DNA of 26,929 bases from a virus (lineage: Duplodnaviria > Caudoviricetes), in IMG/VR virus record IMGVR_UViG_3300033558_000008, positions 1 to 26,929 of that record. One strand, given 5' to 3'. Below are positions 3,811 to 23,362 of the stretch, piece after piece. How positions within the stretch are numbered: the first letter of the stretch is position 1; each line of letters starts with the position of its first letter. The position numbers were made by a program, and so were the translations under genes. The notes beneath the pieces were generated by a model, which did no database searches, was not told the DNA's origin, and worked only from the letters and a program-made list of their open reading frames with translations.

Positions 3811-3831
3811 GTATAAAATTTTTATACTTGC
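3807..3831. repeat. Perfect palindrome (12-bp arms, 1-nt centre) overlapping the -35 box
   Basis: GCAAGTATAAAA-T-TTTTATACTTGC. Confidence 0.9.
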
Positions 3832-6585: not shown

Positions 6586-8921
6586 TATACTAGTACCTCT
6601 ACTTGAATTGTGGATGTTAACCAATCAGGAGTTAACCCTATTATCTGACCAAGCTTACCTTCTGCTAAATTAAACCTAGTACTAGTTAGCAAAACTTGTT
6701 GCCCTAACTTTAAAGATAATAACTTAGAAGTACCTGTAAAACTGTATGTAAATCTAGGTACTTTGAAAAAGTCTGTTAAGCGTAATGCTTCAGCATCTGC
6801 ATCACTACCTACAATTAAGGCAGTATCTTTCTGCTCTGGTAGTACATTAATTCTATATACATTTTTTAAATTACTGTCTACATTAGTTTTACTATACCAT
6901 TCGGTTCCATACATAGTCTTGTGTTCTTCCGGTATAGAAGTTAGTAATCCAGTCTGTATAGTCCAATCTTTACAATAACCTAATTTAATAGCAGGACGTA
7001 CTGGTAGTTTACCTGTCATTGATAGACTATGATGTATCATATCTGAATCTGTTATATCTACAACGGCATCATCTGTGGGTACTCCTACTACCAATAACTG
7101 TAACTTACCCTTACGTGTTATATATAGTTGTGCACCTACACTATTTGCAATAGTATTACATACATCTAGTATATTAGTTTTATCTGATATATAAGTGCCT
7201 ATTGCTTGAGGGTATGTAGTATAAAACTTATAAAAGTTATCTTGGTCTATATCAGTTAATTCTAATCTAGACTCTGCTTTACCATACTGAGTACATATTA
7301 GCGCAATAGTACTTGCAATATTATTATCATAGGTTCCTAGGTTTAATACCGGTGTAGCTACATTACTAGGGAAGCTAATTGAGTTATTTACACCCTGTAC
7401 AGAAGCAGTAAGTGTTCCCGCTACACTATTATTTAATGTAAAGGTACCATTATCTAGGTATGTTAGTACGGAGGGTACTAAGGTACTAACACTTACTACC
7501 CCACTATTAGATAAACTAATTGCTGAACCACCTATTGTAGCACTTACACTATACTGTGTAGTGCTGTACACATATTTTACATAATAAACTGTATTAGCAG
7601 TTAAGCCACCTACATTAGTAGAAAATATAATCTTCTTTCCTGCTAAAAGTCCCGTGGTAGAATTACTAGTAACTATATTGCTTAAAGTAATAGTAGCTGA
7701 TGATACAGAAGGTATAGCTGCCACACCTGCAGTTAATGTAAGTACTGCTCCGCCTAAAGTACTAGAAATAGTAAATTCAAAAGGACTATATACATTCTTT
7801 ATATAATAAGTAGTACCTGCAACTATACCGCCATATAGTGTACCATTAAATACAATAGGTGCATCTACTACAAAGTTCTTTGTACTGCTACAGGTTATAG
7901 CATTATTTCTAACAGTAGTTTTAGCCACATCTACTGTTATAGCTAAAGAGGAGTTAGTAGCTGTAGTAGTTAGTATACTACCTACTGATACTCCTGGAGT
8001 ATAAATCGGTACACCATTATCTCTAATTTCAATAATACTTTCTGTAGCTCTATTAGTAGATAGTATTCTTCCAACTAGATCAGGATCATTATTAAGTGTA
8101 GTAGCTACAGCTGCTCCACCTACTGATAAGCTTATAGTAATAGTAGATAATATAGTATCAATAGTTTTAATATAGTATGTAGTATCTACAGTAATACCGG
8201 AAGAAGTTGTGCCTCCAAATACAATTTTATCGTTTACGCTAATACCGTATACTGAATCACAGTAAATTACTGTATCAATATATGTAACTCTTAAATGAAT
8301 ATAAGGGTCATTAACCATGTACTCTAGATTTGCTGGGTCTACTAGTAAAGGAGGTATATTAAATACTTCACCAAATACTAATGGTTTAATAGTATCTTTA
8401 GTATTTTGACCACCATTCCATGTACCATACGTACCAAGGGTATTTTCGGTTATTGGAGAGTTTAATCTCTCTAGTTTATCTCTAATTCGTAGGTCAAGAG
8501 TATCTCTACCCTTAGAGTCTATATCCTCAATAATACCATCAAATATAAGCTCAAAAGCTAGGTGAATATCTTCAAGTGTATTACATGCCCAGCTAGGGTC
8601 TCCTAGGTATATCTTAATCTCTCTATTATTCCATATATACTTTGAAGTATCTAACCAGCTATCTATTTCTCCATTATAGTTAGCTATAGATATATCTCCG
8701 GCTGATAAAGTAGCTCCACCATCTAATTGCAAACTTTCTGAGAAAGATAGTCCTCCAGTAATACTAGGCATATATGTAATAGTAGCGTCTCCACTAACAT
8801 ATCCGATATTTGATAAAAATATGTCTATATCAAAACCTAACTCTACATCGTAAACCTTTGCCTCTACTAAAAAACCTTTAATTGATGTAGGGCTTTCTAA
8901 CCATGCTTGTGAATATGCCAT
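6585..8921 (-). CDS. Putative baseplate hub / tail tip protein, 778 aa, with three inserted beta-rich repeats
   Basis: Directly downstream of the TMP. Motifs REIKIYLGD...IFDGIIEDID...LRIRDKLERLN, KPLVFGEVFNIPPLLVDP, IIEIRDNGV, and the hub-like C-terminus LKLGQQVLLTSTRFNL..GKLGQIIGL. SD AGGAG. Confidence 0.7.
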   Translation of the reverse strand: MAYSQAWLESPTSIKGFLVEAKVYDVELGFDIDIFLSNIGYVSGDATITYMPSITGGLSFSESLQLDGGATLSAGDISIANYNGEIDSWLDTSKYIWNNREIKIYLGDPSWACNTLEDIHLAFELIFDGIIEDIDSKGRDTLDLRIRDKLERLNSPITENTLGTYGTWNGGQNTKDTIKPLVFGEVFNIPPLLVDPANLEYMVNDPYIHLRVTYIDTVIYCDSVYGISVNDKIVFGGTTSSGITVDTTYYIKTIDTILSTITISLSVGGAAVATTLNNDPDLVGRILSTNRATESIIEIRDNGVPIYTPGVSVGSILTTTATNSSLAITVDVAKTTVRNNAITCSSTKNFVVDAPIVFNGTLYGGIVAGTTYYIKNVYSPFEFTISSTLGGAVLTLTAGVAAIPSVSSATITLSNIVTSNSTTGLLAGKKIIFSTNVGGLTANTVYYVKYVYSTTQYSVSATIGGSAISLSNSGVVSVSTLVPSVLTYLDNGTFTLNNSVAGTLTASVQGVNNSISFPSNVATPVLNLGTYDNNIASTIALICTQYGKAESRLELTDIDQDNFYKFYTTYPQAIGTYISDKTNILDVCNTIANSVGAQLYITRKGKLQLLVVGVPTDDAVVDITDSDMIHHSLSMTGKLPVRPAIKLGYCKDWTIQTGLLTSIPEEHKTMYGTEWYSKTNVDSNLKNVYRINVLPEQKDTALIVGSDADAEALRLTDFFKVPRFTYSFTGTSKLLSLKLGQQVLLTSTRFNLAEGKLGQIIGLTPDWLTSTIQVEVLV

Positions 8922-8948
8922 CTTTACTCCTAAATATGCACTTTACTA

Positions 8949-8977
8949 ATTATACTATACCTATAAAAATTAATCAA
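8949..8977 (-). promoter_or_regulatory. sigma70-type promoter upstream of the hub gene
   Basis: Minus strand TTGATT-N17-TATAAT, preceded by AAAAATTATAC, about 27 nt upstream of the ATG. Confidence 0.8.
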
Positions 8978-8997
8978 GTATAATTTTTATAGGTATA
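8956..8997. repeat. Perfect 17-bp inverted repeat with an 8-nt spacer, centred on the -35 box
   Basis: TATACCTATAAAAATTA-atcaagta-TAATTTTTATAGGTATA. Confidence 0.9.
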
Positions 8998-8999
8998 TA

Positions 9000-9025
9000 C
9001 ACCCACTCTTTTTAAGGAGTGGGTG
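9000..9025 (-). terminator. GC-rich hairpin 7 nt after the TMP stop; atypical terminator or mRNA-stabilising stem
   Basis: CACCCACTC-N8-GAGTGGGTG. It is followed on the minus strand by TATATA rather than a U-run. Confidence 0.5.
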
Positions 9026-9032
9026 AAATACT

Positions 9033-12000
9033 TTAGGCTAACTTAACTTTATTACGTTGAGCCCATAATGCCTGAAGGCCTGCTTCTTCCGTAGCGTTAG
9101 CTACTTTATTAGCTCCTTTTATATTTGCATCGTAGTTTGTTGAAATTATGTGTCCTGTTTGTTCTTGTTGGTCTTTACGAAGTTCTGCAACTTCTTTTCT
9201 TAGATTTCTTATTTCTTCGATTAGTTCTTTATTGCTTAGTAATTGATTGCTTGCTGAATTGCTATAGACTCGGGTCGGTGTCTTGAAGTCGATCAGCTCG
9301 GGTCCTCTTTCTCCAACTAGGGAGAGGCCGTCTGCTAGACCACCAGCATAGTATCCTGGTATAGTAGCAGCACTAGGTACCCAGTTACTACCTGAAGGGA
9401 TATAAGAACCAGTACCCATACCATCTGTACTATTAGTAGGTTTATTAGCACCTAGAGACCTTAGCCTTAAATACCCTTCTATACTCTGGTCGCCTTCTGT
9501 AGGGGTATTTGTTTTATTAATACCATTAAACGCTTTTAAAGCATTTTCAGATGCTATCCCCGGTAGCTGATTAGGGGCCCCCCAGGCACTAATATCTTGT
9601 GCTAATCCATCCCTATATACTGTATCTACTATAGTAGAAATAGCAGACGCCTTTTTTAGTAAATCTACACTAGAAGCATACGTTTTTAAATCCGCTTTTG
9701 TATATTTAATAGGTATATCGTAATCTGATACCTTTGAACCCATATTACTATATGTAAGCCATACGTTATCTTTATCTCCATTAGTAGCAAACTCTGCTAG
9801 TGTATTTCTTACCCCTTCTCCGCTGGATCTTAATGCTACTTTAAGCTCTGAAGCAGTTTTTAAGTCTCCGGTTTTAACCTTAGTTATTTCGTCTGTTGAA
9901 GGATCCCTATTAAGTACCTCTTTAAACGCTGATATAATATATGCAGTTTGACTAGAGACCACATCTGCTGGTTTATTTGCCTCTGTATCCATCCATGCTT
10001 TAACACCTGCTAGTGTCCATCTATCGGCCCCCTCGCCCTCTAAATGTTGCATTAGCATGGTTTTAGTTTCAGTATCACTCTTACGACCCCATTCGCTTAA
10101 GAATAGTTCTTCTAGCTTACCCTCATTACTTGCTTTTAAGGTAGTGCGTACATCAGCAATAGTGGCGTCTTTATCTACATCAATACGCTTTTTCCAGTAG
10201 TCTATATCTGTAGTAGTGGCGGCTCTATTAACTAAAGCAGTATACTGCTCATTAACTAACTCTGCAGTGGTTTTTACAGGTGTAGTTCCTCCGCCACCGC
10301 CACCGCCACCGCCACCGCCACCGCTGTGTGCAATACCTTCAGTACTATTTCTAATATTCTCTTTAATAGTATCAATGCTCATGCCCCCGGCAGCTTGTTC
10401 CATCCAGTAAGACTTACCAGCTACATCCGATGCTCTACCTAAGTAAGTATTATATGCTGATTCAATCTGCCCTTCAGTAGACCTACGCATATTATCCTTA
10501 ATCTGGTCTAGTGTCTGATTACCACTTGTTAGCTCATTCATCCAGTATTCTTTTCCAGCAGCATCAGATGCTCTATTAAGAATACTTTTGTAAAGACTTT
10601 CAATTGTGGCAGATGCAGCACCAGAAGCATCTATACCACCGCCTCCTGGATCTTCCCCCCCTGTTCCAGAATCTTTTAGATCTTGAAGTGCTTTAAGAAC
10701 ATTAGCTTGTGCAGTCAGTAAGTCCGCGGTTAGTCCTTCAATAGTGTCTAAAGTTTCACCTACTCCTGTGAGTTCAGTTAACTGTTTCTCTGAATCGGAC
10801 TGTTGGTTGATTAAACTAATTGAGGTTTCATCTAGTAGATCAAGTACTGAGTTAAAGTCTTGAGTATACTGTTCTGAACTTGCAAATAGTTCGCGGCTAG
10901 CGTCTAAGAAGGTATTAGTAACATCAGGTAGTTTACCTATTGCCTCATTGCGGGTAGCAATCTCAGCGTCTGTAACAGCAACTGCGGTAGCAGCAGCTTT
11001 AACTACATCCATCTGTCTCTTAGCTTCAGCGTATTTCTGCGAAGGATTTAGTGTTGATTTATCGCCCAGTAGTAGGCTATCTTTAGTATCTTGTAATGTT
11101 TTAATAAACTCTTTTAAAGAGCCTATATTTGAGTTTATTTTATCTTTTAGTTTATTTCTAATAGTCTGTTCATCTTGTAGTGCATATATATATTTCTGTC
11201 TTGGACGTAAAGATTCATCCATTGCAGCAAGTTCATCTTCACGAGTTAACTTTAAGGCCTCTTCTGCGCCATATAGTAATTCAGTCAATGTAATTTCTTG
11301 GGTTCTAATAGATTTTAGTAGTACATTAAGATCTTCTTGTGCGTAGGTTTCTTTAATTAGCGCAATCGTAGTTTCATTAATAGCATTAGCAAGTTCTTTT
11401 TCAAGAGCAATCTGTCTAGCAGTTTTAGTACCATTAGCAATAGCCAATTTCTCAGCCCAACCTGCTTGTACTATTTCCTCTTTACGTACTTGTATAGCAT
11501 CAAATAGTGCAAGATTTGACTCATCAATACCTTTACGCTCTTTTTCTAGTAGTTGTGCTCTTGTAGCGGTTAAACTAAATAGCTCATCCATTAGGTCTTG
11601 CTTTTGAGTTGCCACCAGTAGGTCTATCTGTGCTTGTTTCCAGTCCTCAACTAATTTCACTATATCTGTACTAGTATCTTGTGCAGCTTCTGCTAATGCT
11701 TTTAATTCATTAAACTTTTTAGCCCCCTCTATCTCTACTAAAGATTTAGCTTTATCTAAGGCACTCATACCCAGCTGCTGGATGCCTAGGCCAAACTCTG
11801 CTATTTCGACCTGCATGTCATATATAGCATCCGCTAAGGCTTTAATGGCTTCTGGGCTTGGTGGTTCTGTAAGAACAGGTCTATCTGGTGCATTTGGAAA
11901 GAATTGTCCTCCAGTACCAGAACCTCCAGTAACCTCTCCTGTAGTAGGATCAATGAATATAGCACCATTTCCATCTCCATAATCATCTGGTAATTGATAC

Positions 12001-15000
12001 CCTTTAGTAGAGTTTCCTGACATCTGCCCAGTACTTATAGTTATATCTGGTAAAGCTTGTGTACTTGCTAAATCTGGTAGTATTTCTGATAACCTTACTG
12101 TAACCCCTAAACTACCATCTTTACCACGGCTTAGTGGCATTATAGCTTCTGGGCCCGCTTCCCCTGCTATACCCATATCAAACATTGTAGGTTTATTAAC
12201 TATAGTATTTTTAACTAATCCACCTAATGCAAAAGCAGTAGTTGAACTTGGTATAAATACATTACCTAAGGCAGATGCAGTAACTGAAGATGCCGGAGGG
12301 CCTGGGTCATTATATACAACATTTACAGTAAAGGTTGTTGACCCCCCTAGACTAGCAGTAGCCGCAGCGGCTTCGCCAGCTCCAACTACTATAACGTTAA
12401 CTAGCTTATCTACTGGGTCTCCTAAACCTGATATAACTTCAGCAGTAGTTTGCTCACCTTTAGTAGTAATCTCTATTACTGCTGGACGAGTTTCTGTGAT
12501 ATTCGCTATTACATCTTCTGCTGTTACAGAATCAATTTCTATACCCATAAAAATAGGGTCTGGTTTTTGCAAATTAGAAATTACAGTAGCTGCTGCAGTA
12601 TCGTCTAAAGTAGCTACAAAATCAATTATAGAGTTTGAAACGAGTTCTTGTTTAGCTGCAGTTGCTGAGGCATCATTAAGTACTGCTGTAATATTTAAGG
12701 AAGCTATCTCAGTAATTGCGTTCTTAGCTGCATCGGCTTCCTCAGTATCTAAGTCTGCCATTATTTCTAGTACTTCTGGTTGTATTAATAAATCTTTTGT
12801 TTCTTGTGCTATTGCAGGTTCTAATAGTGCTTCTATTACTAACCATTGTGGCTCTAATAATGCATCTACCTGTTCCTCTGCCATACCTGTATCTAATAAT
12901 ATTTCTTTTTGAATGTCTAAGCTAGAGGTCAGCTGTTGTAGTTCATTTACGGTATCTCCGGGCTCTAATATGGCAGATATAGTTAATGGTGTTTGATCTG
13001 CAAAATATTGCATCTCATCATTAAAGTCTCTAAAGTCTATTTCTGATATGCCTAAATCTTCGGCAGTAAATCTAGTAACTTCCTTGGCTTTAGCAAATAC
13101 ATTAAATAGAGAGTCCCCTAGTCCTTCTTCTATTGCATTACCTGCAATACGTATGCTCTCATCAACTAAATCTTGATCCCATAGAGGATTTAGATCTATT
13201 AGTACTCCATCTTCATCCTCAACCTGACGTTTGCCAGTTAAAAATCCGTCTAGTATTGCACGGGCTTCTGTATCTGATAGATTTTTTCCTAATCTCTCTC
13301 CGGCGGTACTTAGTGCAGTTTCTACTCTAGTTAGATCATCTCCTTCAATACCTAATCTTACTGTTATATTTCTAGCATTACCTGCCTCTACAAATTCTGA
13401 AAAGTCTCTAGTTGATCTTCTATCTAACTGAGTAATTACATCTACAAAAATAGGTTCAGATAGTTGAGCAAGTGCATCAGTTGCAGCAGCAATATCAATA
13501 GCGGCTGAAATCTTTACATTACGTGCCTTTGTTAAATCTAGAATTTCTTGATCGGCAGCTCCTGCGTCAATACGTGCTTGTATTACAACATCAGTATTTT
13601 CAGCGAGTGTAGATATTTCTTCAAAACTATTACCTGGTTCCAATAATGCCGATAATGTAACTACTGACTGTTGGCCTAGCTTTTTAACTGCTGCTGCCAT
13701 TTTATCACTACTATCTGCTGCTAGTATTGGATTCACTAATAATTTATTAGATTTAATATAATCATTTATGTCTATTCCGGCCTGGTTAGCTTTTATCTGT
13801 AAGGTATATTCAATAATCTTTATAGCATCTGGTTGACCTTCTGCTGTTAGGATATCCATGAATTCTTTAGGTATATTACCTTTACTTATAGTTAAAACAT
13901 ACTCTAAGGCCTTACTTTCAGCATTAATAAAATTCATAGTATCTGAATCATTAGCCTTTATCGCTATACTCATTCTATAAGTAGTATCAGCAGCAGCGGC
14001 CAATAATATGTCTTTAGTTTCACCAGTTAATCCAGATACCCCATCCGGACCTACTAGGGTCATCTCAACTATTCTACTAGTAGTACTAGTATGTTCAAAT
14101 ACTAGAGATTTATCTTCCTCACTTAGGCTATCACTCTGCAGGGACAGTATAATATTACGCTGCATACGATTATTTAAAGTAAGAAAGTTACTAACATCTT
14201 CCGAACTCATACCCGGGGTTGACATAATGAGCCCAATATTAGCAGTAACATCACCAAATGAACCAATAGCTAATTTTTGTAGTACTGGGTCTAAATCAGG
14301 TGTTTCTATGATAAATTTTAGTGATTTATTACTTAAGGTTAATAAGTCTATTGCATCTTGTTTATTTTGTTCACTATGTAGGTTTAAATCAGATACTACT
14401 ATCTGCATAGCAGTAGTTAAGGTTTTGCCCGCATTAGCTAATAATAGTTTAGCTCCTTCGTCTAATCCTTCTGATTTTACCCCTATTGCCATAATAGACG
14501 CTAGATCTGTAGTTGCTCTATATGCAAGGGTTTTATCAGTATAGGACATTGCAGAGTCTTGTATTGCTAGAACTGTATCTGATAAAGCGTTACTAAGATT
14601 ACTAAAGGCTACTCTAGTATCGGGCATTAGTTCGGTTTCAAAAATAGTTTTGAATGATGCTAATATACCATTTATAGCACTTATAGCTTCTTTATCTCTT
14701 AAATCATCTTTATTAAGTCCGGCTAACATATCCTGTAATTTTTTGACAGCATCCTCTAATGTTTTTGCTGCTTCTGATAGTTTCTTTAAGCTATCAATTA
14801 CTTTTAGTAAATCTTTTTGTGTTTTTGTATATGCTGTGTCAAGTTTTTTCTGTAAAGATAATTCATCCTCACTTATTTTCCCACGCATTATAGCTAATTC
14901 TTCTTCTAATTCCTTAGTTTGCTCGTTTACTTCTACTAGAGCTAGTACACTTGATTGAAGTGCTAGTACACCGGCAGTAGCTTCTGCGTTAGCCTTTATA

Positions 15001-18000
15001 GACTGGTCCATAGCTAACTTACCTTTAACTATACTTAAGTACCATGATTTTGTTACTTTTTCAACAGCAGGCATATCTACTTCGAACTCACTAAAGGATT
15101 CTTTTAGATTATTAGTAGTTACTATGGTCTTATCTAAATTAGAGTAAAAATCTTGAAATAAACTATCTAAATTATTTATTAAAGGCTCTATTCCTCCGGC
15201 AGCTTTTACTAAACCTTCAGTTAACTCTAGATTTCTAACTGTTAAACTACTATTAGCTTGATGTACATCATTAAGTGCTTCTGTGTAAGCTTCGGTAGCT
15301 TCGGTAGCTATCATTTCTGCGGCGGCTATGTCATTAGCATTTGTTTCAACAACATCTCCACTTTCATAGCTATGTGTGTACTCAATTTTTTCCGGAATTT
15401 TTGCTTTAGCTGCTATCATTTCTCTTTCGGCGGCAGCTAACTTATCATTCATTTCCTTTGTAGCTTTACCTGCTGTTTCTGGTATACGTGCTAAAGACAT
15501 ACCCATATTATTCATAGCTGCATTAATACTGGCACTATTATTAGTTACTCTTGAAACTGTTTCTGAGAACCCCTCGCCAAACTCTCTAAACTGTTTTAGC
15601 TGTGGTGCTACTTTCATAGCTGCGTCATCTAATATACCACTAAACATTGCATTTAATTCTTCTTGACTTTCTTTACCCGTTAGTCCTCTTAAAGATGCTG
15701 CTATATCAATATTTAAAGAATTTGCTCTTTCTAAAGTTTGTTCGGCTGTAAGACCTAATTGACTTCCTTGAGCTACAAGGAATTCTCCCATATAGTCAAA
15801 TGTTTCTCTAATTGCAGCCTCTGCTTTAGTTTCTAATGGTTTTACTGCGGTATTTACAGAAGTATCAGAACTGCCAAAAAACCCGAATATTCCTGAGTTT
15901 GTTTCAGTATGTTGAACTGTTTCGAACTTTTTAATTAGGCCATCACCAGCAGTACTTAAACTAGCAAGTGTACCAGTAAACTTAATACCTGCATTAATAA
16001 TTTCAGTTGTTTCCGATGTAGCAAATAATCCAAGTAATCCAGGGTTGCTAGTACTACTCTCTACAGTGCCAAAATCGGATCCAGTACGTATACCTACTTC
16101 CCCATATGCAGCTTTTGCTACTTCCCCTATACCTTGTTCAATATTTTTTAGATATAATAGTGATTGTCTAGTGTAACTATTATCAGCTACTAAAGAATCG
16201 CTAATTACTTCTAAGTAATCTAATGAGTTTTGTATAGAATTAGATTTAGCAGAGGTATCCCCGAACACTCCACCACCATTATCTACAAGGTTTCCATCTA
16301 CCCAGCTTTGCCCAGTGCCTTGGGATTGTTGCATGTCTGCTGCACTAATACCTGAGGGTACACTAGGTACTGAGCCACCACCACTACCTGCCAGAGCTGC
16401 AATCATAGCTACAAATCCTGCGACTGCAGCTAATCCAGCGAAACCGCCTTGTGATACTAAGTTGGCGGCTCCACCAGCTATTTTAGCAGGTAATAGTCCG
16501 AGCTGTGCAGCCATCTCAGCTGCTTTCATGGCCATACTAGCCATGTGTACGCCTGTTTCTACTGCGTTTAATACCTTATATGCAGCAGTCTTTTCACCAA
16601 ACATTTTCTTAGCTGCTCCGGCGGTTTCACCAATACCCGCTAATTCCTCTTCTGCCGATTTTTTCTTAGATAGTGATACCTCTTCATCTAGTTTTGCTAG
16701 GTCTTCTTCGCTAGATACTCCATCCTTGACTGCTTTAGCTAGTTTTTCTTCTGCAGCTGTAGCCGCATTCTTATTTTTAATATTATTAGTAGCTACCTTT
16801 TGCATGGTAGTTAAAGTTTGAGATAACCCAGTACCAAATTTAGCAAAACTTTTACCTACGTCACCTAAAGAATCTGCTAGCCCATTAAATGCACCTTCAA
16901 TGCTATCTGCTAGTTTTTGCATTTTTCGCATTTCATCATTGGCTTCGGCAAGTGCTTCTTTTTCTGCTCCAGTAATATCTAGTGATAATCTTTTTGCTTT
17001 TCCACCTGCGTTTATTAGGTCTATTTGATCTACGTATGCCGCATTTATTTCTATTAACTTTGCTACCGCTTCTTTATGTGCATCTGACCCTGGGTCTGCT
17101 GTTGATATTTGTGCAATAACTGGAGCAGCTACAGCATCTTTATTTGCTGTAGCAAGCCCAATTTCTGCTTTAATTCTTGCCTCTTCTTTAACTTTATCAA
17201 TTAAATTTTGTTCTGCAACTAAGCGCTTTTCATCATATATACCTAGGTTTTTCATACGCTCTAAATTAGCGTCTAAAGCATCTAAGGCTAAATTATTATA
17301 GCCTTCGGCTAGTTTTCTTATGTCATCTTGTTTTTTTAATTCTTCTGTTATTACGGCTTGTGCTCTTTCAGTAGTACTATTTTGTTCCTGTATAATAGCA
17401 TTAGTTATGGATGCTTCTTTAGTTAGACCTAATTCTTTCATCTTTAATTCATAGGTAGCTAAAGCTTCTTGTTTCTTTTTATCCCCTTCTGGGCCTTTTA
17501 AAGTTCTATCCATTAATACACTATAGTAATCTTTGGCAGCATCTGTTAAGTCTTTTTGGTACTGAGTTTCTGCTTTTAAATCTGAAGCAACTCTTTCTCT
17601 AGCTATTGCTTCTTCTGATGCATACCCCTTAATACTTTTTACTCTATCATCTATAGCTTTAGTATTAGCAAACTCATTATCTGCACGTTTAATACTTAGT
17701 CCATATGCCTCTACACTATTCTTTAATCCTGCTAATATTCTTTTAGATTCTTCTGAGTATTTTTCGATTGCTTTTTTAGCTCCTGAACCTTTTCCCATTA
17801 AATTAGATAACCTAACAGTAGCATTATCTAAAAATACTTTTAGAGAAGCATTAATAATATCAGGAGCTACATTTGCTGCGGTTAGTGTTTTTAATATATG
17901 AGCAAATTGAATATATATAGGTAAAGCTTCTGCGGCTAGCTTACCTCCAGCTAAAATAGACTTACCTAATTCTCCAAAAATAGTAGAGGCGTTTAATGCG

Positions 18001-20939
18001 GGAGGTGCATTAGAGTCTATAGCACTAGATAGTGCATTATAGTAAGTAACTGCTTCATTAGATATTAAACCTTTTGTAGAGTCCCCTAACTTATTTTGTG
18101 TTTCTACTGCTTTAGTAGATATATCTGATAAGGTTTTTGCTGCAGTAACTGCTTTAGTAGACATTGATGTCATACCTTCACCTAATTCACCTAAGCCTGC
18201 TTTACCAGCAATGGCTTCCTGAATTAAAGCTCTTAATGCGGGAATGCTAGACTTAATTCTAGCTAAATCTTCATCATTAAATAGTGTTCTAGATGAAGAT
18301 TCTGCAAGTTTTACTTTTTCTAGTGCGGTACTTAATTCCTTGGTATAAGCTAATATTTGCTTACCTTTATCTGCTACGTTAGTATTACTACTAGATGCAC
18401 TTAATTTTCCAAGATTTTCAAGATTATATACTTCTCTACTGAAAAAAGTGTCGTTACGCTTAGCCTGTTCTTCTAGTGTCTTTAATGTTAGTTCTTGTTC
18501 TGACTTTATACGTTCAGCTGTATACTGTTTAAATGCATCTATTTGAGAAGTTAGGGCAGTAGCAAATTTATTATCAAAAGCTGCTTTCTGTTCTTGAGAT
18601 TCAAAACCTTTAGCTTGTTCTGTAGCTAGTTCCCTATAAGTTTCTCCTAAAATTCCTAATGTATCAGTATATGCTTTTAACTTTTCTTTTTGTTCATCTA
18701 ATGCCTTGGATACATCATTAGTTATACCTAGCCATTCTTTGGTTGTATCCCCAAATAATTGCCATATAGTAACTACTATCATAATAGGGCCAAATGCTGC
18801 ACTTACAGCCCCTATTAGTCCTTTGAAACCTAATGCGAGTATTTTTGTAGCTCCACTTGCTGCAGTGGTGGTTGAAGCAAAAATAGATGTAATCTTTGCC
18901 CCTGTACCTAAACTATTTGTAAGTGTAGGGATAGCCTTACCTGCTTCTTGGGTAGCTTTACCCATATTGAGCATTGCTGCACCTGTATCTAATATACCAT
19001 TTTTAAATCCAGCCCATCCTCCTTGATTAAAAGATGCAGATATTTTTGATAAACTATCTGTCATTAAATCCTTTAAACCACCTTTATTTATTGCCGATAC
19101 TGAAGCAATTTCAGATGCAGTAGCTTTAGCTTTAGCAGCCGCTAAGTTAGTAGCAGCTAAAGTCTGTGCGTTCATTGCTTCTACATCTTTTGTCTCTACA
19201 GGTAGTCCAGCAGCTACTGCAGCGGTCATAGATTTTTGTGCTATAGCTGCTTTTTCTTTTGCAGTTGCTAAAGCTGATGTGGCTGCTGCTTCTGGTATAC
19301 CACGGGATTCTGCTACCGTAGTCATATCTGGTAATTCAAAAGTAGCTCTAGATTTATTTGTAGAGTTTCTTAGTCTATCGGCTTCTGCACTAAGTTTCTG
19401 TAGACTAATAGTATTAGCAGCCTCTTCTTTTTGTAGTATATTAAGAGTTCCTTGGGCATTAACACGTTTTTGTATATCTATAAAATGTGCTGCAGCTATA
19501 TCTTTTGTTTTTGAAGATAAGACTAGATTTTCTTTAGTAGAATTAACCTCTAGTACTCCGGCATTTACTAGTTTATCAATATATCCCGCAGTATCCTTTT
19601 TAAACCCATATTGAGATTTTAATGATTGAGTAATTTGATGCTCTATATCTGCAGCAGATTTAAGCTTAGATAGATCACTATACCCATCTGTAAGATTAGA
19701 TAGTTTTGTAGATAAAGTTTTAGTACTAATACCTGCAGCACCTCCTTTTACAGAGGCTAAAGAATTAAATGCGGTTTTAGTACTTTCTGCTGTTATAGGG
19801 TTAAGTCCGCCTAGAGCTTTAATCTCAGCCTGTCCTTTAATAATAGCAAGCTTAGTAGTACTTATATACCCATCTACCTGTTTAAGCATTGCAGCATTAG
19901 CTGCGGAAGCCTTATCTTTATCATAATTAAATATACTATTAAATAATCCACCAAGTTCTGGTACTACTCGTTTTGCTAATGTAGCTCCTATTAATATAAC
20001 TAGTGCTTGCAGTCCGCTCTTAGAATCTGCCAAGAACTGCATTACTGGTGATATAAAAGTACTAAAAGCCCCTAATAATTCATTTAGAGCATTTTTACCT
20101 GTGGCTAAAAACTCGCTGAAAGGATCTTTAATTTCTGCAAATTTTTTCCATTTTTCTCCGAGACGTTCCACTTCATTAGCGTAAGCTTGAGTGCGCTGGC
20201 GTCCTGTTAAGTCCTCTGCCTTAACACCAATTTGACTAGCGTACTTATCAAAAGCTTGTTTACTTTTAACGAAAATACCTAATTCATCTAAAATTTCTTG
20301 TTCTTGTTTAGCGGTACCTTGTATAATACGACGTACTGAATCATTTGCGTCTCTACCTAAGGCACTAGCGGCTCCCCTGGCAATCTTAGTTAGACTTTCA
20401 ATTTGTTTACCCGCTAAACCTGCAGAAGTACCTACATTACTAAACTGCATAGCCTCTGCAAAACTAATAGCATGGCCTGAGGCCTCTACTAAGTTATTTG
20501 AAATACCTTTAAGATTTGCTCCTACAGATACACTCATCATTTCGGTAGCTTTACTTAGGCGCTCTACTGCGGCAGCTTTATTTAATGCCTCAAATGCTGC
20601 GCCTACAGCAAATATATTGGCAGCGAATGTAGCGTATAGTTGTACTACTCCACCTAATCCTTGTGATTGTTTTGCAAAGTCACGTCCGGCCGCACCTGTA
20701 CCTACGGTACCACGTACTTTTCCATATGCTTTATCATCAATACTATTACCTGCTGCAGTATTTGCAGTATTAATAGCAGCAGATCCTGGAGTAGAACGTG
20801 CAGCTGCAGATGTCTTAATACTACTAGCAGCTTTTTGTGCTCCTTCTAAATTTCCTCTAAGACTGGCTGCTTCTTTATTTGCTTTTTCAATATCTGTTGC
20901 TTTAAGCTTTAGCTCCATACCTATAACTGTATTTGCCAT
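9033..20939 (-). CDS. Tail tape measure protein (T5 pb2-like N-terminus), 3,968 aa
   Basis: Follows the tube and chaperone genes. N-terminal GRDFAKQSQGLGGVVQLYATFAANIFAV and EILDELGI motifs, a long Ala/Lys/Glu helical body, hydrophobic TM-like segments, and GEAGPEAIMPL and VGERGPEL TMP C-terminal-type motifs. SD AGGAG. Confidence 0.93.
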   Translation of the reverse strand: MANTVIGMELKLKATDIEKANKEAASLRGNLEGAQKAASSIKTSAAARSTPGSAAINTANTAAGNSIDDKAYGKVRGTVGTGAAGRDFAKQSQGLGGVVQLYATFAANIFAVGAAFEALNKAAAVERLSKATEMMSVSVGANLKGISNNLVEASGHAISFAEAMQFSNVGTSAGLAGKQIESLTKIARGAASALGRDANDSVRRIIQGTAKQEQEILDELGIFVKSKQAFDKYASQIGVKAEDLTGRQRTQAYANEVERLGEKWKKFAEIKDPFSEFLATGKNALNELLGAFSTFISPVMQFLADSKSGLQALVILIGATLAKRVVPELGGLFNSIFNYDKDKASAANAAMLKQVDGYISTTKLAIIKGQAEIKALGGLNPITAESTKTAFNSLASVKGGAAGISTKTLSTKLSNLTDGYSDLSKLKSAADIEHQITQSLKSQYGFKKDTAGYIDKLVNAGVLEVNSTKENLVLSSKTKDIAAAHFIDIQKRVNAQGTLNILQKEEAANTISLQKLSAEADRLRNSTNKSRATFELPDMTTVAESRGIPEAAATSALATAKEKAAIAQKSMTAAVAAGLPVETKDVEAMNAQTLAATNLAAAKAKATASEIASVSAINKGGLKDLMTDSLSKISASFNQGGWAGFKNGILDTGAAMLNMGKATQEAGKAIPTLTNSLGTGAKITSIFASTTTAASGATKILALGFKGLIGAVSAAFGPIMIVVTIWQLFGDTTKEWLGITNDVSKALDEQKEKLKAYTDTLGILGETYRELATEQAKGFESQEQKAAFDNKFATALTSQIDAFKQYTAERIKSEQELTLKTLEEQAKRNDTFFSREVYNLENLGKLSASSSNTNVADKGKQILAYTKELSTALEKVKLAESSSRTLFNDEDLARIKSSIPALRALIQEAIAGKAGLGELGEGMTSMSTKAVTAAKTLSDISTKAVETQNKLGDSTKGLISNEAVTYYNALSSAIDSNAPPALNASTIFGELGKSILAGGKLAAEALPIYIQFAHILKTLTAANVAPDIINASLKVFLDNATVRLSNLMGKGSGAKKAIEKYSEESKRILAGLKNSVEAYGLSIKRADNEFANTKAIDDRVKSIKGYASEEAIARERVASDLKAETQYQKDLTDAAKDYYSVLMDRTLKGPEGDKKKQEALATYELKMKELGLTKEASITNAIIQEQNSTTERAQAVITEELKKQDDIRKLAEGYNNLALDALDANLERMKNLGIYDEKRLVAEQNLIDKVKEEARIKAEIGLATANKDAVAAPVIAQISTADPGSDAHKEAVAKLIEINAAYVDQIDLINAGGKAKRLSLDITGAEKEALAEANDEMRKMQKLADSIEGAFNGLADSLGDVGKSFAKFGTGLSQTLTTMQKVATNNIKNKNAATAAEEKLAKAVKDGVSSEEDLAKLDEEVSLSKKKSAEEELAGIGETAGAAKKMFGEKTAAYKVLNAVETGVHMASMAMKAAEMAAQLGLLPAKIAGGAANLVSQGGFAGLAAVAGFVAMIAALAGSGGGSVPSVPSGISAADMQQSQGTGQSWVDGNLVDNGGGVFGDTSAKSNSIQNSLDYLEVISDSLVADNSYTRQSLLYLKNIEQGIGEVAKAAYGEVGIRTGSDFGTVESSTSNPGLLGLFATSETTEIINAGIKFTGTLASLSTAGDGLIKKFETVQHTETNSGIFGFFGSSDTSVNTAVKPLETKAEAAIRETFDYMGEFLVAQGSQLGLTAEQTLERANSLNIDIAASLRGLTGKESQEELNAMFSGILDDAAMKVAPQLKQFREFGEGFSETVSRVTNNSASINAAMNNMGMSLARIPETAGKATKEMNDKLAAAEREMIAAKAKIPEKIEYTHSYESGDVVETNANDIAAAEMIATEATEAYTEALNDVHQANSSLTVRNLELTEGLVKAAGGIEPLINNLDSLFQDFYSNLDKTIVTTNNLKESFSEFEVDMPAVEKVTKSWYLSIVKGKLAMDQSIKANAEATAGVLALQSSVLALVEVNEQTKELEEELAIMRGKISEDELSLQKKLDTAYTKTQKDLLKVIDSLKKLSEAAKTLEDAVKKLQDMLAGLNKDDLRDKEAISAINGILASFKTIFETELMPDTRVAFSNLSNALSDTVLAIQDSAMSYTDKTLAYRATTDLASIMAIGVKSEGLDEGAKLLLANAGKTLTTAMQIVVSDLNLHSEQNKQDAIDLLTLSNKSLKFIIETPDLDPVLQKLAIGSFGDVTANIGLIMSTPGMSSEDVSNFLTLNNRMQRNIILSLQSDSLSEEDKSLVFEHTSTTSRIVEMTLVGPDGVSGLTGETKDILLAAAADTTYRMSIAIKANDSDTMNFINAESKALEYVLTISKGNIPKEFMDILTAEGQPDAIKIIEYTLQIKANQAGIDINDYIKSNKLLVNPILAADSSDKMAAAVKKLGQQSVVTLSALLEPGNSFEEISTLAENTDVVIQARIDAGAADQEILDLTKARNVKISAAIDIAAATDALAQLSEPIFVDVITQLDRRSTRDFSEFVEAGNARNITVRLGIEGDDLTRVETALSTAGERLGKNLSDTEARAILDGFLTGKRQVEDEDGVLIDLNPLWDQDLVDESIRIAGNAIEEGLGDSLFNVFAKAKEVTRFTAEDLGISEIDFRDFNDEMQYFADQTPLTISAILEPGDTVNELQQLTSSLDIQKEILLDTGMAEEQVDALLEPQWLVIEALLEPAIAQETKDLLIQPEVLEIMADLDTEEADAAKNAITEIASLNITAVLNDASATAAKQELVSNSIIDFVATLDDTAAATVISNLQKPDPIFMGIEIDSVTAEDVIANITETRPAVIEITTKGEQTTAEVISGLGDPVDKLVNVIVVGAGEAAAATASLGGSTTFTVNVVYNDPGPPASSVTASALGNVFIPSSTTAFALGGLVKNTIVNKPTMFDMGIAGEAGPEAIMPLSRGKDGSLGVTVRLSEILPDLASTQALPDITISTGQMSGNSTKGYQLPDDYGDGNGAIFIDPTTGEVTGGSGTGGQFFPNAPDRPVLTEPPSPEAIKALADAIYDMQVEIAEFGLGIQQLGMSALDKAKSLVEIEGAKKFNELKALAEAAQDTSTDIVKLVEDWKQAQIDLLVATQKQDLMDELFSLTATRAQLLEKERKGIDESNLALFDAIQVRKEEIVQAGWAEKLAIANGTKTARQIALEKELANAINETTIALIKETYAQEDLNVLLKSIRTQEITLTELLYGAEEALKLTREDELAAMDESLRPRQKYIYALQDEQTIRNKLKDKINSNIGSLKEFIKTLQDTKDSLLLGDKSTLNPSQKYAEAKRQMDVVKAAATAVAVTDAEIATRNEAIGKLPDVTNTFLDASRELFASSEQYTQDFNSVLDLLDETSISLINQQSDSEKQLTELTGVGETLDTIEGLTADLLTAQANVLKALQDLKDSGTGGEDPGGGGIDASGAASATIESLYKSILNRASDAAGKEYWMNELTSGNQTLDQIKDNMRRSTEGQIESAYNTYLGRASDVAGKSYWMEQAAGGMSIDTIKENIRNSTEGIAHSGGGGGGGGGGGGTTPVKTTAELVNEQYTALVNRAATTTDIDYWKKRIDVDKDATIADVRTTLKASNEGKLEELFLSEWGRKSDTETKTMLMQHLEGEGADRWTLAGVKAWMDTEANKPADVVSSQTAYIISAFKEVLNRDPSTDEITKVKTGDLKTASELKVALRSSGEGVRNTLAEFATNGDKDNVWLTYSNMGSKVSDYDIPIKYTKADLKTYASSVDLLKKASAISTIVDTVYRDGLAQDISAWGAPNQLPGIASENALKAFNGINKTNTPTEGDQSIEGYLRLRSLGANKPTNSTDGMGTGSYIPSGSNWVPSAATIPGYYAGGLADGLSLVGERGPELIDFKTPTRVYSNSASNQLLSNKELIEEIRNLRKEVAELRKDQQEQTGHIISTNYDANIKGANKVANATEEAGLQALWAQRNKVKLA
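10288..10323 (-). repeat. Hexanucleotide microsatellite (CCGCCA)5 encoding a 12-Gly linker in the TMP
   Basis: cct-(ccgcca)x5-ccg on the plus strand; translates to HSGGGGGGGGGGGGTTP. Confidence 0.95.
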
Positions 20940-20982
20940 ATTCTCTCCTAGTATAGCACTTGCTATTAATTTTATCTACCCT

Positions 20983-21011
20983 ATTATACCACCTATGCAG
21001 CGCAGTGTAAA
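20983..21011 (-). promoter_or_regulatory. sigma70-type promoter for the TMP gene
   Basis: Minus strand TTTACA-N17-TATAAT with extended -10 (TGG-TATAAT), immediately downstream of a terminator. Confidence 0.8.
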
Positions 21012-21032
21012 GATGTAAATTTATTCAGGCGT

Positions 21033-21065
21033 AAAAAAGCCCCCTAGCTTTTATACTAGGGGGCT
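21033..21065 (-). terminator. Rho-independent terminator after the chaperone genes
   Basis: Minus strand AGCCCCCTAG-tataaaag-CTAGGGGGCT-TTTTT. The stem includes the TAG stop codon. Confidence 0.9.
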
Positions 21066-21379
21066 GTCTTAGGTTTATCCTTTGGCTTATTATCAGATAT
21101 TGCTTTAGATCTATGCTTATCTATCATAGATACTAAACCTAACATAGTCTTATGATCTTCCGCCGGCACATCTTCTATTATAAATAGATCTCGAATACCT
21201 TCTAAATGTTTCCCCATATAGACGCCGTTCATACCATCCCAGTCATCTCTAAGTTTACCGTAGAATGCAAAAGCTTCTTGGACTTCTGTAGGAAAATCCT
21301 CATAATCTACAGGTATTTCTTCTTCTATGGGTTCATTTCCCAGCATTTCACACATTTCAAAATAAGCGTCTTTAGTCAT
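21056..21379 (-). CDS. Tail assembly chaperone, second ORF (gpT-like; probably expressed as a -1 frameshift fusion)
   Basis: YFEMCEMLG.EP.EEEIP...L.D.WDGMNG.YMGK. Lies between the first chaperone and the TMP. No SD before its ATG, and its frame stays open upstream past the slippery site to a TGA just before it. Confidence 0.8.
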   Translation of the reverse strand: MTKDAYFEMCEMLGNEPIEEEIPVDYEDFPTEVQEAFAFYGKLRDDWDGMNGVYMGKHLEGIRDLFIIEDVPAEDHKTMLGLVSMIDKHRSKAISDNKPKDKPKTAP

Positions 21380-21420
21380 ACTAACGGCGCTATTCTGAAA
21401 ATATAGTGCTAAGAGTCTAT

Positions 21421-21858
21421 TTATTTCGACGTACTGGCTTTCGTGAAATTTGAAAGATCAGTGACTGTATCACTAATGAAACCATCAAAATTGGCAGAGT
21501 TTTGCATTAAGAATAGTGCATTATCCTGGCTGTACTCTAGTTCTGCTTCTGGATCTTGTCCAGTTAAGTCTACAGGAGCTAACTGTTCTAGATAAGATAG
21601 TTTAAACCCTGTCCATCCTTTAATACATGCGTTAACATATAGTTGTAAGAATAACTTGTCATCAAGTTCTTCTACTGGCTGACGATTTTTAAAACTAGTT
21701 TTTGTAGCTTTCTTACGAATACTAACTAGAGTTTCTCTAGATAGAAATACCGCATCAATCTTAAAACCACTAAGTCCAGGATACTCAACCTCTACTGTTT
21801 TACTTGGTACTAGTAAAGATTTAAGACTTGTAACCGGTGATGTTGTTAGATCTGTCAT
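21421..21858 (-). CDS. Tail assembly chaperone (gpG-like), 145 aa
   Basis: SLKSLLVPSKTVEVEYPG..GF...LSRETL..IRKKAT...IKGWTG...YSQDNALFLMQNS. Directly follows the tail tube gene. SD AAGGA. Confidence 0.85.
   Translation of the reverse strand: MTDLTTSPVTSLKSLLVPSKTVEVEYPGLSGFKIDAVFLSRETLVSIRKKATKTSFKNRQPVEELDDKLFLQLYVNACIKGWTGFKLSYLEQLAPVDLTGQDPEAELEYSQDNALFLMQNSANFDGFISDTVTDLSNFTKASTSK
21445..21451 (-). promoter_or_regulatory. -1 programmed ribosomal frameshift slippery heptamer A_AAT_TTC
   Basis: In-frame X_XXY_YYZ (TCA AAT TTC, Ser-Asn-Phe), 7 codons before the stop. The -1 frame runs uninterrupted into 21056..21379. Confidence 0.85.
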
Positions 21859-21891
21859 TTTTGTGTTCCTTTAATAATTATAACACTTGAT

Positions 21892-21922
21892 AAAAAGAGC
21901 CGCCAGTGATCAAGCTGGCGAC
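21892..21922 (-). terminator. Rho-independent terminator after the major tail protein gene
   Basis: Minus strand GTCGCCAG-cttgatca-CTGGCGGC-TCTTTTT. Confidence 0.8.
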
Positions 21923-21931
21923 AGGAGAAAA

Positions 21932-23362
21932 TTAAACTGAGTAGTAACGAATAGAAATATCGTTAGTCTTGTCTAGCGAGAAGGTATTAGCATTAGCGAT
22001 AGCGCTTGGTGTGCTACCGGCAGCAGTAAAGTTAATAGCTGTTGATACAACTGCTTGAACATCTACGCTAGGTACAGTAACAGTTACTGAAGGCATATCT
22101 AGAACAACCTTAGTACCGTTATTACCACCAACATTAATTACTAAAGAAGCCATAGGTTCAATAGCTGTTGGGCTTCCAGTAGTGATAGCTGCTAACATAT
22201 CAGATAGTAGGTTACCAGTCTGTCCAGTAGTACCAGTCTTTAAATAAGCATTCATAGTACCAGTAATAGCACGTGTACCGGTGAAGTACGTAATAGGCAT
22301 ATTAATAGTACCTAGATTAGCTGGAGTTACATAAGTAATGTTATTATTGATAGTAATAGAACCACCAGTAAGAGCGATTGTATATGCTGTACCCGCTGCT
22401 GTACTACCTAAAGCATTAACTAAAGCTAGAGATACTGTGCTTAATTTATTAGTAATAAATGCTGCACTAGTATTTTTAGTAGTAACAGAACCTAGGTCAG
22501 TTGAATCAATAGTACTGCTTTGTGTTAGTTTAGTACCTTGTCCAGTCCAGGCTACTGTTGCAATAGCATCTAAACCGAAGTCTAGAACGGCTTGATTCAT
22601 TGCACAGTTATCGATAACGTATGTTACGCTATCTACTAAGAAGATCATACCAAACTTTTGTAGTTGATTATAGTTAGATCCGCCGGCAGTCACTACTGAA
22701 TAAGTAGATGTAACTGGTGCCCATGCTGATTTATATAAAGTAACTGTATCTGCAGTAGCTAGGGTAATAGCTGCGATAGCTGCACCTGCTGCCTTAGGAT
22801 TAACTAATTCAATTTCGATTGAAGTAGCTGAAGGAGTACCTACAACTGTACCGGCAGAGTTAATAACTGTGCCATCTGTTGCATGTACAAGTCCACCAAC
22901 TACTACCTGTGCACCTGCTACTACACCAGTTAAGGGCATTGCTGTACCAGAAATAGTAAGTTTACCAGCACCAGCTAAATAAGCATAAGCTACACCAGAT
23001 ACACCAGTAATAGTTAAAGTATTAGCTGTACTAATATCATTAACACCTAGTAGTGCATTCCATAGTACGGCTTCTTCAGCGGTAATGCTAGTAGTAGCAT
23101 TAAATGGACGTACATAGGTAGAAAGAGAGAAGTCTACTGGAGCTAAGCTAGAGTTAAAAGAACGTTGACCGCGTACAGGAGCATTACCAGCTTCGGAAAT
23201 AGTTACTGTATCAGCATTAGCATTCTGAGAAAAAGAGAATCCGTCTAAAACTTGGATTTCTTGGGTATTAGCGGCGGTGAATCCAGTATCCTGAACTACA
23301 CCATAAGAGTTTACGTTAGTAGTGAAGAATACTCTACTATTACGTGATAGATTTAAAGCCAT
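21932..23362 (-). CDS. Major tail tube protein (T5 pb6-like), 476 aa
   Basis: N-terminus MALNLSRNSRVFF, EIQVLDGFSFSQ, RGQRSFN.SL.PVDFSLSTYVRP, DFGLDAIATVAWTG, ITINNNITYVTPANLG and FTGTRAITG are pb6-family motifs. Position after the tail terminator. Confidence 0.92.
   Translation of the reverse strand: MALNLSRNSRVFFTTNVNSYGVVQDTGFTAANTQEIQVLDGFSFSQNANADTVTISEAGNAPVRGQRSFNSSLAPVDFSLSTYVRPFNATTSITAEEAVLWNALLGVNDISTANTLTITGVSGVAYAYLAGAGKLTISGTAMPLTGVVAGAQVVVGGLVHATDGTVINSAGTVVGTPSATSIEIELVNPKAAGAAIAAITLATADTVTLYKSAWAPVTSTYSVVTAGGSNYNQLQKFGMIFLVDSVTYVIDNCAMNQAVLDFGLDAIATVAWTGQGTKLTQSSTIDSTDLGSVTTKNTSAAFITNKLSTVSLALVNALGSTAAGTAYTIALTGGSITINNNITYVTPANLGTINMPITYFTGTRAITGTMNAYLKTGTTGQTGNLLSDMLAAITTGSPTAIEPMASLVINVGGNNGTKVVLDMPSVTVTVPSVDVQAVVSTAINFTAAGSTPSAIANANTFSLDKTNDISIRYYSV

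Follow-up and report, generated by a model that had tools for sequence, protein, structure and literature searches.

A 3,968-residue tape measure protein of mosaic build in a T5-related siphophage

The virus record IMGVR_UViG_3300033558_000008 (Duplodnaviria; Caudoviricetes), whose 26,929 nucleotides were analysed in full and are here called the window, carries on its minus strand an 11.9-kb gene (9033..20939) for a tape measure protein (TMP) of 3,968 residues, and the question that this locus raises is what becomes of so long a ruler. The initial annotation saw two options, either a tail approaching 600 nm or a C-terminal half that is largely cleaved off or ejected as an envelope-spanning apparatus, and regarded the gene as the best candidate for an undescribed system in the window. 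In our view the best explanation is probably that the whole chain serves as ruler for a tail of about 0.5-0.63 micrometres and is later cut at a hinge, whereupon the distal half would be ejected into the envelope of the host cell.

Identity and integrity of the gene

The gene is a single unbroken open reading frame (ORF) of 3,968 codons without internal stop, as had been noted initially. It is the longest gene of the window, which comprises a siphophage head-to-tail module with all genes on the minus strand in the order capsid, head completion, p143-like completion, terminator, tube, two chaperones, TMP and then five or six tip or fibre genes, and it lies right behind the genes of the tail tube and of the G/GT chaperones with their -1 frameshift site, where the slippery sequence A AAT TTC opens, when the frame is read by hand, into that of the second chaperone ORF. 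Homologues of T5 pb8, p144, p143, p142, pb6 and both chaperones are present in the T5 order, six of them found by phmmer and p143 by Pfam PF25747 only, and residues 73-308 of the TMP match T5 pb2 at 33% identity (tblastn, E 4e-28). A p140 baseplate tube gene is found neither between the pb6 homologue and the chaperones nor by phmmer, no sequence match to pb9, pb3 or pb4 (pb4 tested only in part) occurs among the 14 window proteins, and residues 2001-3968 have no T5 match among the matches listed. Since the pb2-like N-terminus and the T5 homologues are present while matches to pb9, pb3 and p140 are absent, the product is, judging from homology, the TMP of a T5 relative whose tail tip differs at the sequence level. 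The phage itself is not filed in Demerecviridae; T5-like phages have a characteristic genome size, terminal repeats, nicks and two-step injection.

The top-scoring sigma-70-like site within positions 8000-22500 runs from 21011 to 20983, in the gap ahead of the TMP ATG and just after the terminator-like hairpin at 21065..21038. Because promoter-like sites are not enriched overall in this region (35 found against 46.7 +/- 6.8 in shuffles), the promoter is supported by its position and not by count, and it is this placement that bears out the earlier claim of a promoter proper to the TMP gene. The hairpin that had been noted downstream exists as well, with a perfect 9-bp stem (9025-9017 / 9008-9000) and an 8-nt loop, although it has no T-run and was not called by the terminator scan (9000..9025); a 10/12 promoter-like site follows at 8977..8949. 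The internal repeat arrays, also part of the initial annotation, are equally real: residues 2400-2900 have a 24-residue period (z 6.7-7.3 against 50 shuffles), and the duplicated block 2427/2652 and the 46-residue repeats 3437/3483 score 80 and 81 in a diagonal self-scan in which the best of 3 local shuffles reached 42-53.

An ORF of this size might have been created by an assembly that joined the TMP genes of two phages. Indeed the whole stretch is found in one sequencing run only (X1, containing 99% of the sampled words), which is the probable source of the sequence and hence not independent evidence, and two places are unbridged in it, namely base 13609 (residue ~2444) and the poly-Gly region 10283-10330. 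Nonetheless, both junctions of the inserted segment described below (~15215 and ~12060) lie inside single X1 contigs, one covering 13610-20687 (depth 41) and the other 10331-13608 (depth 43), in which neither joints nor loose ends appear at 95% likeness, base 13609 has sequence colinear with the homologues P0013-P0015 on both flanks, no DNA-level repeat is found at the junctions, and the codon use of the insert matches the genome. Runs X2 and X3 from another study hold short, partly near-identical pieces of the N-terminal half, none listed inside the insert, and with a share of 0.06-0.07 and low depth they are uninformative on the insert either way. Because contigs bridge both junctions at even depth, a chimeric assembly is unlikely, and the joining of two TMP genes, discarded on the grounds of this bridging and of the colinearity around 13609, is a highly improbable origin of the ORF.

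A mosaic distal half

Relatives were taken from 386 viral and 334 metagenome matches, of which the best 80 each were used, together with nine proteins and P0015. On the 161 loci lay 158 TMP ORFs; those that were complete numbered 95, which with the proteins made 85 unique sequences, or 82 once three fragments of 250-463 residues had been dropped. The TMP studied here is the longest of the 83 compared, the other 82 spanning 1,457-3,523 residues in two length classes (37 under 2,100 residues and 45 above), and none of them reaches 4,000. The pb2-like N-terminal domain is found in all 85 unique complete relatives, which were selected by that domain, and a second conserved domain, here called module e (residues 1527-1830), is found in 40 of the 45 long relatives and in none of the 37 short ones. 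The distance from the start to module e is steady at 1,600 +/- 94 residues in these 40 relatives, and that from the module to the end varies from 647 to 1,910 residues, compared with ~2,450 in the 3,968-residue TMP, so that the growth is located behind module e. The remaining TMPs above 3,000 residues (L093, L145 and L140) are each enlarged behind module e by different material, and when the N-terminal domains are arranged in a quick tree (84 rows), the four giants sit in four separate places, the present one within a clade of 2,324-2,698-residue TMPs (support of 99 in the Shimodaira-Hasegawa-like approximate likelihood ratio test, SH-aLRT). Since at least 5-7 changes are required on this tree to account for where module e occurs, comparison of the sequences points to repeated swapping of distal TMP halves. 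Recent-looking tandem duplications are seen behind module e in L093 (9962-19288, 3,108 residues) and L140 (9911-20482, 3,523 residues), and the 2,763-residue TMP of L051 (8449-16740) has a Peptidase_S74 match (30.7 bits, cut-off 22) at residues 2569-2623, just before its end motif.

Close relatives match residues ~1-1950, 3160-3520 and 3830-3968 but leave out the middle. When residues 1961-3160 were searched against 1.84 billion proteins, four long homologues were found, and residues 1909-2946 follow P0013 (1743-2648) in three pieces of 29-38% identity, stopping ~85 residues short of its end; P0014, P0015 and P0016 also match this inserted segment. P0013, P0014 and P0016 are of a different lineage with a PhageMin_Tail N-terminus, P0015 has a T5-type start, and it is the only one of the 85 family members to match residues 2050-2520 and 2648-2880. 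The segment contains helical repeats, two blocks of 24-residue repeats and a copy of the TMP end motif, which was matched by a profile at residue 2903, 1,065 residues from the C-terminus, and whose region (~2885-2950) gives most of the 150 matches listed in the above search. From residue 2988 onward the protein follows L145 (2638-3357, 32-44% identity) and, at 40%, P0002 (2180-2553), and the block 3240-3420 is found in 36 of the 85 relatives. The end motif is thereby present twice, 963 residues apart, whereas 62 of the 82 relatives have one copy, 19 none that was detected and only one, L095, has two. No type-B end helix stands behind the internal copy. The true end is of the type that pairs with the 778-residue tip gene downstream: among 65 loci with at least 1.5 kb of downstream sequence, a homologue of that gene follows 15 of 15 TMPs with a type-A end, 0 of 5 of type B, 0 of 26 of the short type and 12 of 19 unclassified ones. 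By its homologies, then, the protein is a mosaic in which the end of a TMP of another lineage is stacked inside, followed by the family's own end. L095 (586-6621), a TMP of the short class with 2,011 residues, has its two end motifs 267 residues apart and is a second case of stacked ends. A search for a donor of the insert found no match in genome contigs and one locus in viral contigs, L081, with an ORF as long as P0014.

The two 24-residue repeat blocks are separated by a 120-residue segment without homologue among the relatives, and their strand-helix pattern comes from a low-confidence model (predicted local distance difference test, pLDDT, 46). This model of residues 2001-2950, built from 5 sequences, gave BFVD matches with TM-scores of at most 0.17 that were not used, and a search of the ESM Atlas with residues 2180-2900 gave no lead (best score 0.89, low recognition). 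At the DNA level the poly-Gly run 10291-10324 is the only clear tandem array of the gene according to Tandem Repeats Finder, the remaining rows being two-copy with scores of at most 54. Enzyme cargo was considered and rejected: Pfam gave no enzyme family, nor any family besides DUF4214, anywhere in the TMP, and sequence searches of the PDB gave only Gly-linker and chance matches. No peptidase family was found in the Pfam scans either, a search aimed at the metallopeptidase motif of pb2C not having been made. It may be speculated that the tail is long and that the captured segment is nevertheless active cargo that refolds in the envelope, or that it provides a second processing site as in a polyprotein, since it is colinear with four other TMPs over ~450 residues, has the genome's own codon use and keeps its end motif intact. 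However, the five closest relatives manage without it, L093, L140 and L145 fill the same place with unrelated material, the segment has no Pfam family or enzyme match and it is modelled with low confidence, all of which makes such a role decidedly unlikely; most likely the captured repeats are a spacer.

Module e is far better defined. An AlphaFold2 model of residues 1515-1950 from 30 sequences reached a pLDDT of 85 and a predicted TM-score (pTM) of 0.78 and has two long β-hairpins (tips at 1634-1640 and 1683-1689) with conserved Gly/aromatic tips between Ser/Thr/Lys-rich flanks. Foldseek found no PDB match at E 0.001, and the VIA PDB lists consist of generic helical hairpins (model residues 290-405; best Z 8.6, root mean square deviation 2.6 over 76 residues) that barely cover the β-rich part; this absence is not taken to mean a new fold. 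Five phage proteins in BFVD match at E 3e-12 or better, as do the TMPs of four cultured phages, CGphi29, ValSw3-3, Lsp-JY19 and Me-ZS1, by sequence (E 1e-35 to 3e-44), and 104 further records matched. Elsewhere, the shaft (residues 341-1480) has a weak 7/11/18 periodicity (z ~3), hydropathy peaks lie at 98-116, 704-730 and 1494-1513, and residues 1830-2240 are helical in the models, in line with the largely helical build and hydrophobic segments expected of a siphophage TMP.

Close to the C-terminus, DUF4214 (PF13946) scores 76.5 bits when a part of the protein is searched and 61.4 with the whole (cut-off 23.2), and a self-match links residues 3476 and 3593. Similar repeats occur in L145, P0002, L033 and L152, and also in CGphi29, a cultured phage. 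Of the DUF4214 relatives found, P0164 and P0165 are the closest (42% identity); they have 700-800 residues with six Pfam repeats followed by Cys-rich ones.

Tail length and the fate of the distal half

The initial annotation reckoned with roughly 0.15 nm of tail per residue and a T5 pb2 of about 1,200 residues, and both figures hold up well. T5 pb2 is annotated with 1,219 residues, which with a tube reported as 160 nm (10.1101/2022.09.20.507954) gives 0.131 nm per residue, and the reported values are 0.145 for TP901-1 over 810 counted residues (PMC5099701), 0.153-0.156 for phiCbK (1,964 residues, 300 nm) and Colossus (2,155 residues, 336 nm; PMC3556154) and 0.16 for P23-45 (5,002 residues, ~800 nm; 10.1101/2022.12.01.518664). 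Two phages with module e can be added, ValSw3-3 with 1,062 residues and a tail of 168 +/- 2.2 nm (0.158 nm per residue; PMC7199398) and CGphi29 with 1,418 residues and 179 nm (0.126 nm per residue; PMC6518143); for Me-ZS1 and Lsp-JY19 no tail lengths were found in the literature. Six published pairs of TMP and tail, applied to 3,968 residues, yield 501-635 nm, and by this analogy a tail of about 500-635 nm, three to four times that of T5, is likely. Typical phage tails measure 50-200 nm (PMC10034513), and the predicted one would rank among the longest.

Such arithmetic presupposes that the distal half is measured as well. Alternatively, it could be largely folded or removed before the tube polymerises, leaving a tail of ~200-450 nm; cleavage close to the hinge, for instance, would give 190-245 nm, and the internal end motif around residue 2950 would be another candidate site. 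The confident and compact predicted fold of module e, the internal end motif, doubled in only one of the 82 relatives (L095, with none detected in 19), and the low ratio of CGphi29 would be in agreement with this notion. However, ValSw3-3, in which module e occupies residues 554-878, needs its entire chain for 168 nm and would have a tail of only ~110 nm without the module, and ~88 nm would be expected for CGphi29 if the part ahead of the module alone were counted, which is too short for a 179-nm tail and excludes loss of its whole distal half. Since both tails fit nearly the whole TMP length, the module e part likely counts as ruler by analogy. Furthermore, deletion of a 114-residue hydrolase motif (motif 3) from the TM4 TMP is reported to shorten the tail by ~20 nm (PMC1796659), so that this motif adds to tail length; the internal end motif is without a terminal helix, only the true end fitting the tip gene; and the tube lumen is cited as 4 nm for T4 (PMC9022992). 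On balance a distal half that escapes measurement is unlikely.

We therefore return to the whole-chain ruler with later cleavage and ejection. As only the true C-terminal end would dock on the tip, the entire chain would be coated by chaperones and measured. After assembly it would be cut near the hydrophobic and Gly-rich hinge (~1500-1525), as in lambda, where gpH is reported to be processed within a Gly-rich region once the tail is assembled and to form a periplasm-spanning channel (PMC12617516), and in T5, where pb2 is cut behind a hydrophobic stretch with both pieces remaining in the tail (10.1101/2022.09.20.507954). The cut would leave a distal fragment of ~2,450 residues, compared with 92-140 in T5 and lambda. 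On infection this part is predicted to exit first; module e would refold, the membrane would be engaged by its two hairpins with their hydrophobic tips, and binding to the cell surface would fall to the DUF4214 repeats. Membrane insertion is suggested by the modelled Gly/aromatic tips with their Ser/Thr/Lys-rich flanks, and surface binding is predicted by analogy with Psh, a secreted protein of P. putida that DUF4214 helps to hold on O-antigen according to the reasoning of a preprint (10.64898/2026.09.02.748959); DUF4214 proteins of this kind are treated as surface-anchored (PMC11970703). Measuring is thus backed by the calibration, while cleavage, membrane insertion and surface binding follow from analogy or prediction. 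Because cleavage of the TMP in lambda and T5 follows tail assembly and precedes ejection, and because domains inside TMPs add length, as in TM4, ValSw3-3 and CGphi29, the either/or of the initial annotation is probably false: its TMP identity and its long-tail arithmetic stand, its choice between tail and cargo probably does not.

Several points weigh against this explanation. The tail length is a prediction from the gene, and the inserted repeats matched no cultured phage, which leaves the insert itself uncalibrated. CGphi29 would have a tail of 161 nm without module e, near enough to 179 nm for a compact module to be compatible. The authors of the P23-45 study hypothesise folded domains within the virion (10.1101/2022.12.01.518664), cleavage has according to the source consulted been demonstrated for T5 and lambda only (PMC12617516), membrane insertion draws on a model, and surface binding draws on what one preprint infers. 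As to the order of the mosaic events, the insert is not marked as foreign by its G+C content at third codon positions (GC3 0.160 against 0.169 expected, z -0.85); the first 1,900 codons are poorer in third-position G+C (z -3.3) and the last 1,000 richer (GC3 0.219 against 0.180, z 3.3), so that either end may have been the later arrival.

A bolder version would make the distal 2,450 residues an ejected modular machine that spans the envelope, with the paired hydrophobic-tipped hairpins of a widespread and so far undescribed domain inserting into the host membrane, the DUF4214 repeats clamping surface polysaccharide and the end motif acting as a processing or recombination module by which ends are stacked. 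Taken as a whole this is rather unlikely, but if true, stacked ends would adapt the entry channel as well as a 0.6-micrometre tail to hosts with thick coats.

Neighbouring genes and comparison with known systems

The features discussed are collected in Table 1. Among the neighbours, the tube protein has ~100 additional residues (113-213) between its two pb6-matching parts, and the last 120 residues of pb6 are without a match in it. The p143-like tail completion protein (23873-25624, minus strand) has 583 residues against 255 in T5, the match being limited to residues 423-547 with ~420 N-terminal residues unexplained; L145 has a 631-residue gene in this place. The structural neighbours of the 778-residue protein in the Atlas are phage proteins, in one set with Phage-tail_3 in 15% of the members; these neighbours have ~490 residues, aligned over ~480, and an internal unit of the protein is seen by eye in three copies. 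Further downstream lie an 821-residue fibre (4159-6624, minus strand) with a C-terminal Peptidase_S74 chaperone domain and an internal unit duplicated 312 nt apart, a 279-residue gene of PHROG 8610 (2911-3750, minus strand), which is four genes downstream of the TMP and whose homologues in relatives stand directly behind the TMP or several genes on, and a 792-residue tail fibre (531-2909, minus strand) with a long 21-residue (63-nt) Ala/Thr/Ser repeat array at ~1550-2780.

Table 1. Positions of the TMP gene, its parts and flanking features in the window (residue numbers are those of the TMP)
Feature	Position	Strand	Basis
TMP gene, 3,968 residues	9033..20939	-	ORF; PHROG 3779 TMP, E 1.5e-38; behind tube and chaperone genes
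Second TMP C-terminal motif and type-A terminal helix (3855-3968), likely tip-docking end	9033..9377	-	type-A end profile, E 3.6e-30
DUF4214-type repeats: two clear (3444-3534), one weaker (3559-3606), possibly a fourth	10035..10610	-	PF13946; poly-Gly linker 10291-10324
Family-type helical repeats and conserved block (2988-3430)	10650..11978	-	L145, P0002, relatives
Inserted segment (1909-2960), homologous to the C-terminal third of other TMPs, without their terminal helix	12060..15215	-	P0013, P0014, P0015, P0016
First (internal) copy of TMP C-terminal motif (~2885-2950)	12090..12287	-	profile match at 2903
Two blocks of 24-residue predicted strand-helix repeats (2424-2520, 2648-2870)	12330..13670	-	period 24, z 6.7-7.3; block duplication
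Conserved post-hinge domain, module e (1527-1830), and helical hairpin	15216..16361	-	AlphaFold2; relatives; cultured phages
Hydrophobic stretch and Gly/Ser hinge (1485-1525), candidate maturation-cleavage region by analogy	16365..16487	-	hydropathy peak 1494-1513
Ala/Lys/Glu-rich predicted helical shaft (341-1480) with hydrophobic stretch 704-730	16500..19919	-	composition, hydropathy
N-terminal domain homologous to T5 pb2 (~70-340)	19920..20732	-	tblastn
Promoter-like site, 11/12, extended -10 (TG)	20983..21011	-	sigma-70-like scan
Terminator-like hairpin closing upstream chaperone genes	21038..21065	-	11 pairs and T-run
Downstream hairpin without T-run	9000..9025	-	read from sequence
Likely tail-tip hub, 778 residues, not T5 pb3 by sequence	6585..8921	-	PHROG 8917 (unknown function); co-occurs with type-A TMP ends
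Tail assembly chaperone pair, -1 slippery site A AAT TTC from 21451	21056..21858	-	PHROG 313, PHROG 3914; T5 homologues, E 8e-29 and 2e-11
Tail tube protein, pb6 homologue	21932..23362	-	library match and phmmer

The closest known system is T5 (Tequintavirus, Demerecviridae). Its pb2 has the homologous N-terminal domain and likewise a hydrophobic stretch that precedes the distal part; its genes for capsid, head-tail adaptor, completion, terminator, tube and chaperones have homologues here that are arranged alike; and terminator and promoter signals flank the TMP gene in both, T5 having an annotated terminator before pb2 and a terminator and promoter after it. The present TMP is however 3.3 times longer than pb2, its homology stops near residue 310, its ~2,450 residues behind the hinge compare with a pb2C of 92, and a p140 gene and sequence matches to the T5 tip proteins are lacking as described above. 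Lambda-type TMPs are alike in the end motif, which many TMPs carry at their C-termini, and gpH is reported to have a hydrophobic stretch and a Gly-rich region too; gpH has only 853 residues, however, and the motif occurs twice here. The 5,002-residue TMP of P23-45 / P74-26 is likewise a giant, has domains embedded in it and belongs to a very long tail, but there an RNA polymerase is reported to be fused N-terminally, whereas here the extra material is C-terminal and without polymerase or enzyme family, and no record of these phages was among the matches listed in the TMP searches. Giant TMPs are thus already known (P23-45; PMC10034513, PMC9022992), as are repeats and homorepeats as a source of TMP length (PMC13585406), and with 45 of the 82 relatives built to the same plan at 2,100-3,523 residues, calling this an undescribed system was too strong. 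The literature searched, mainly open-access papers, gave no description of this TMP group, of stacked TMP ends or of DUF4214 in a TMP. If one ruler takes up the end of another while its last helix stays matched to the tip, tail length could increase in large jumps. Surface proteins such as Psh resemble the present TMP through a Pfam match to DUF4214 above the cut-off, but here the domain sits inside a TMP, and the binding of Psh to O-antigen is itself deduced.

The TMPs of CGphi29 (Salicola), ValSw3-3 (Vibrio), Lsp-JY19 and Me-ZS1, finally, share module e, and CGphi29 also has one DUF4214-type repeat just ahead of its TMP end, although these are siphophages of 37-50 kb whose TMPs have 1,062-1,915 residues and match neither the pb2-like N-terminal segment nor the 24-residue array. 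The passages of the CGphi29 and ValSw3-3 papers that give tail lengths (PMC6518143, PMC7199398) say nothing on module e. As a conserved and confidently foldable TMP domain it is nonetheless more useful than a record length, and it is the part most worth following because its role in how TMPs form the DNA entry channel can be tested in these cultured phages, without culturing the phage described here.

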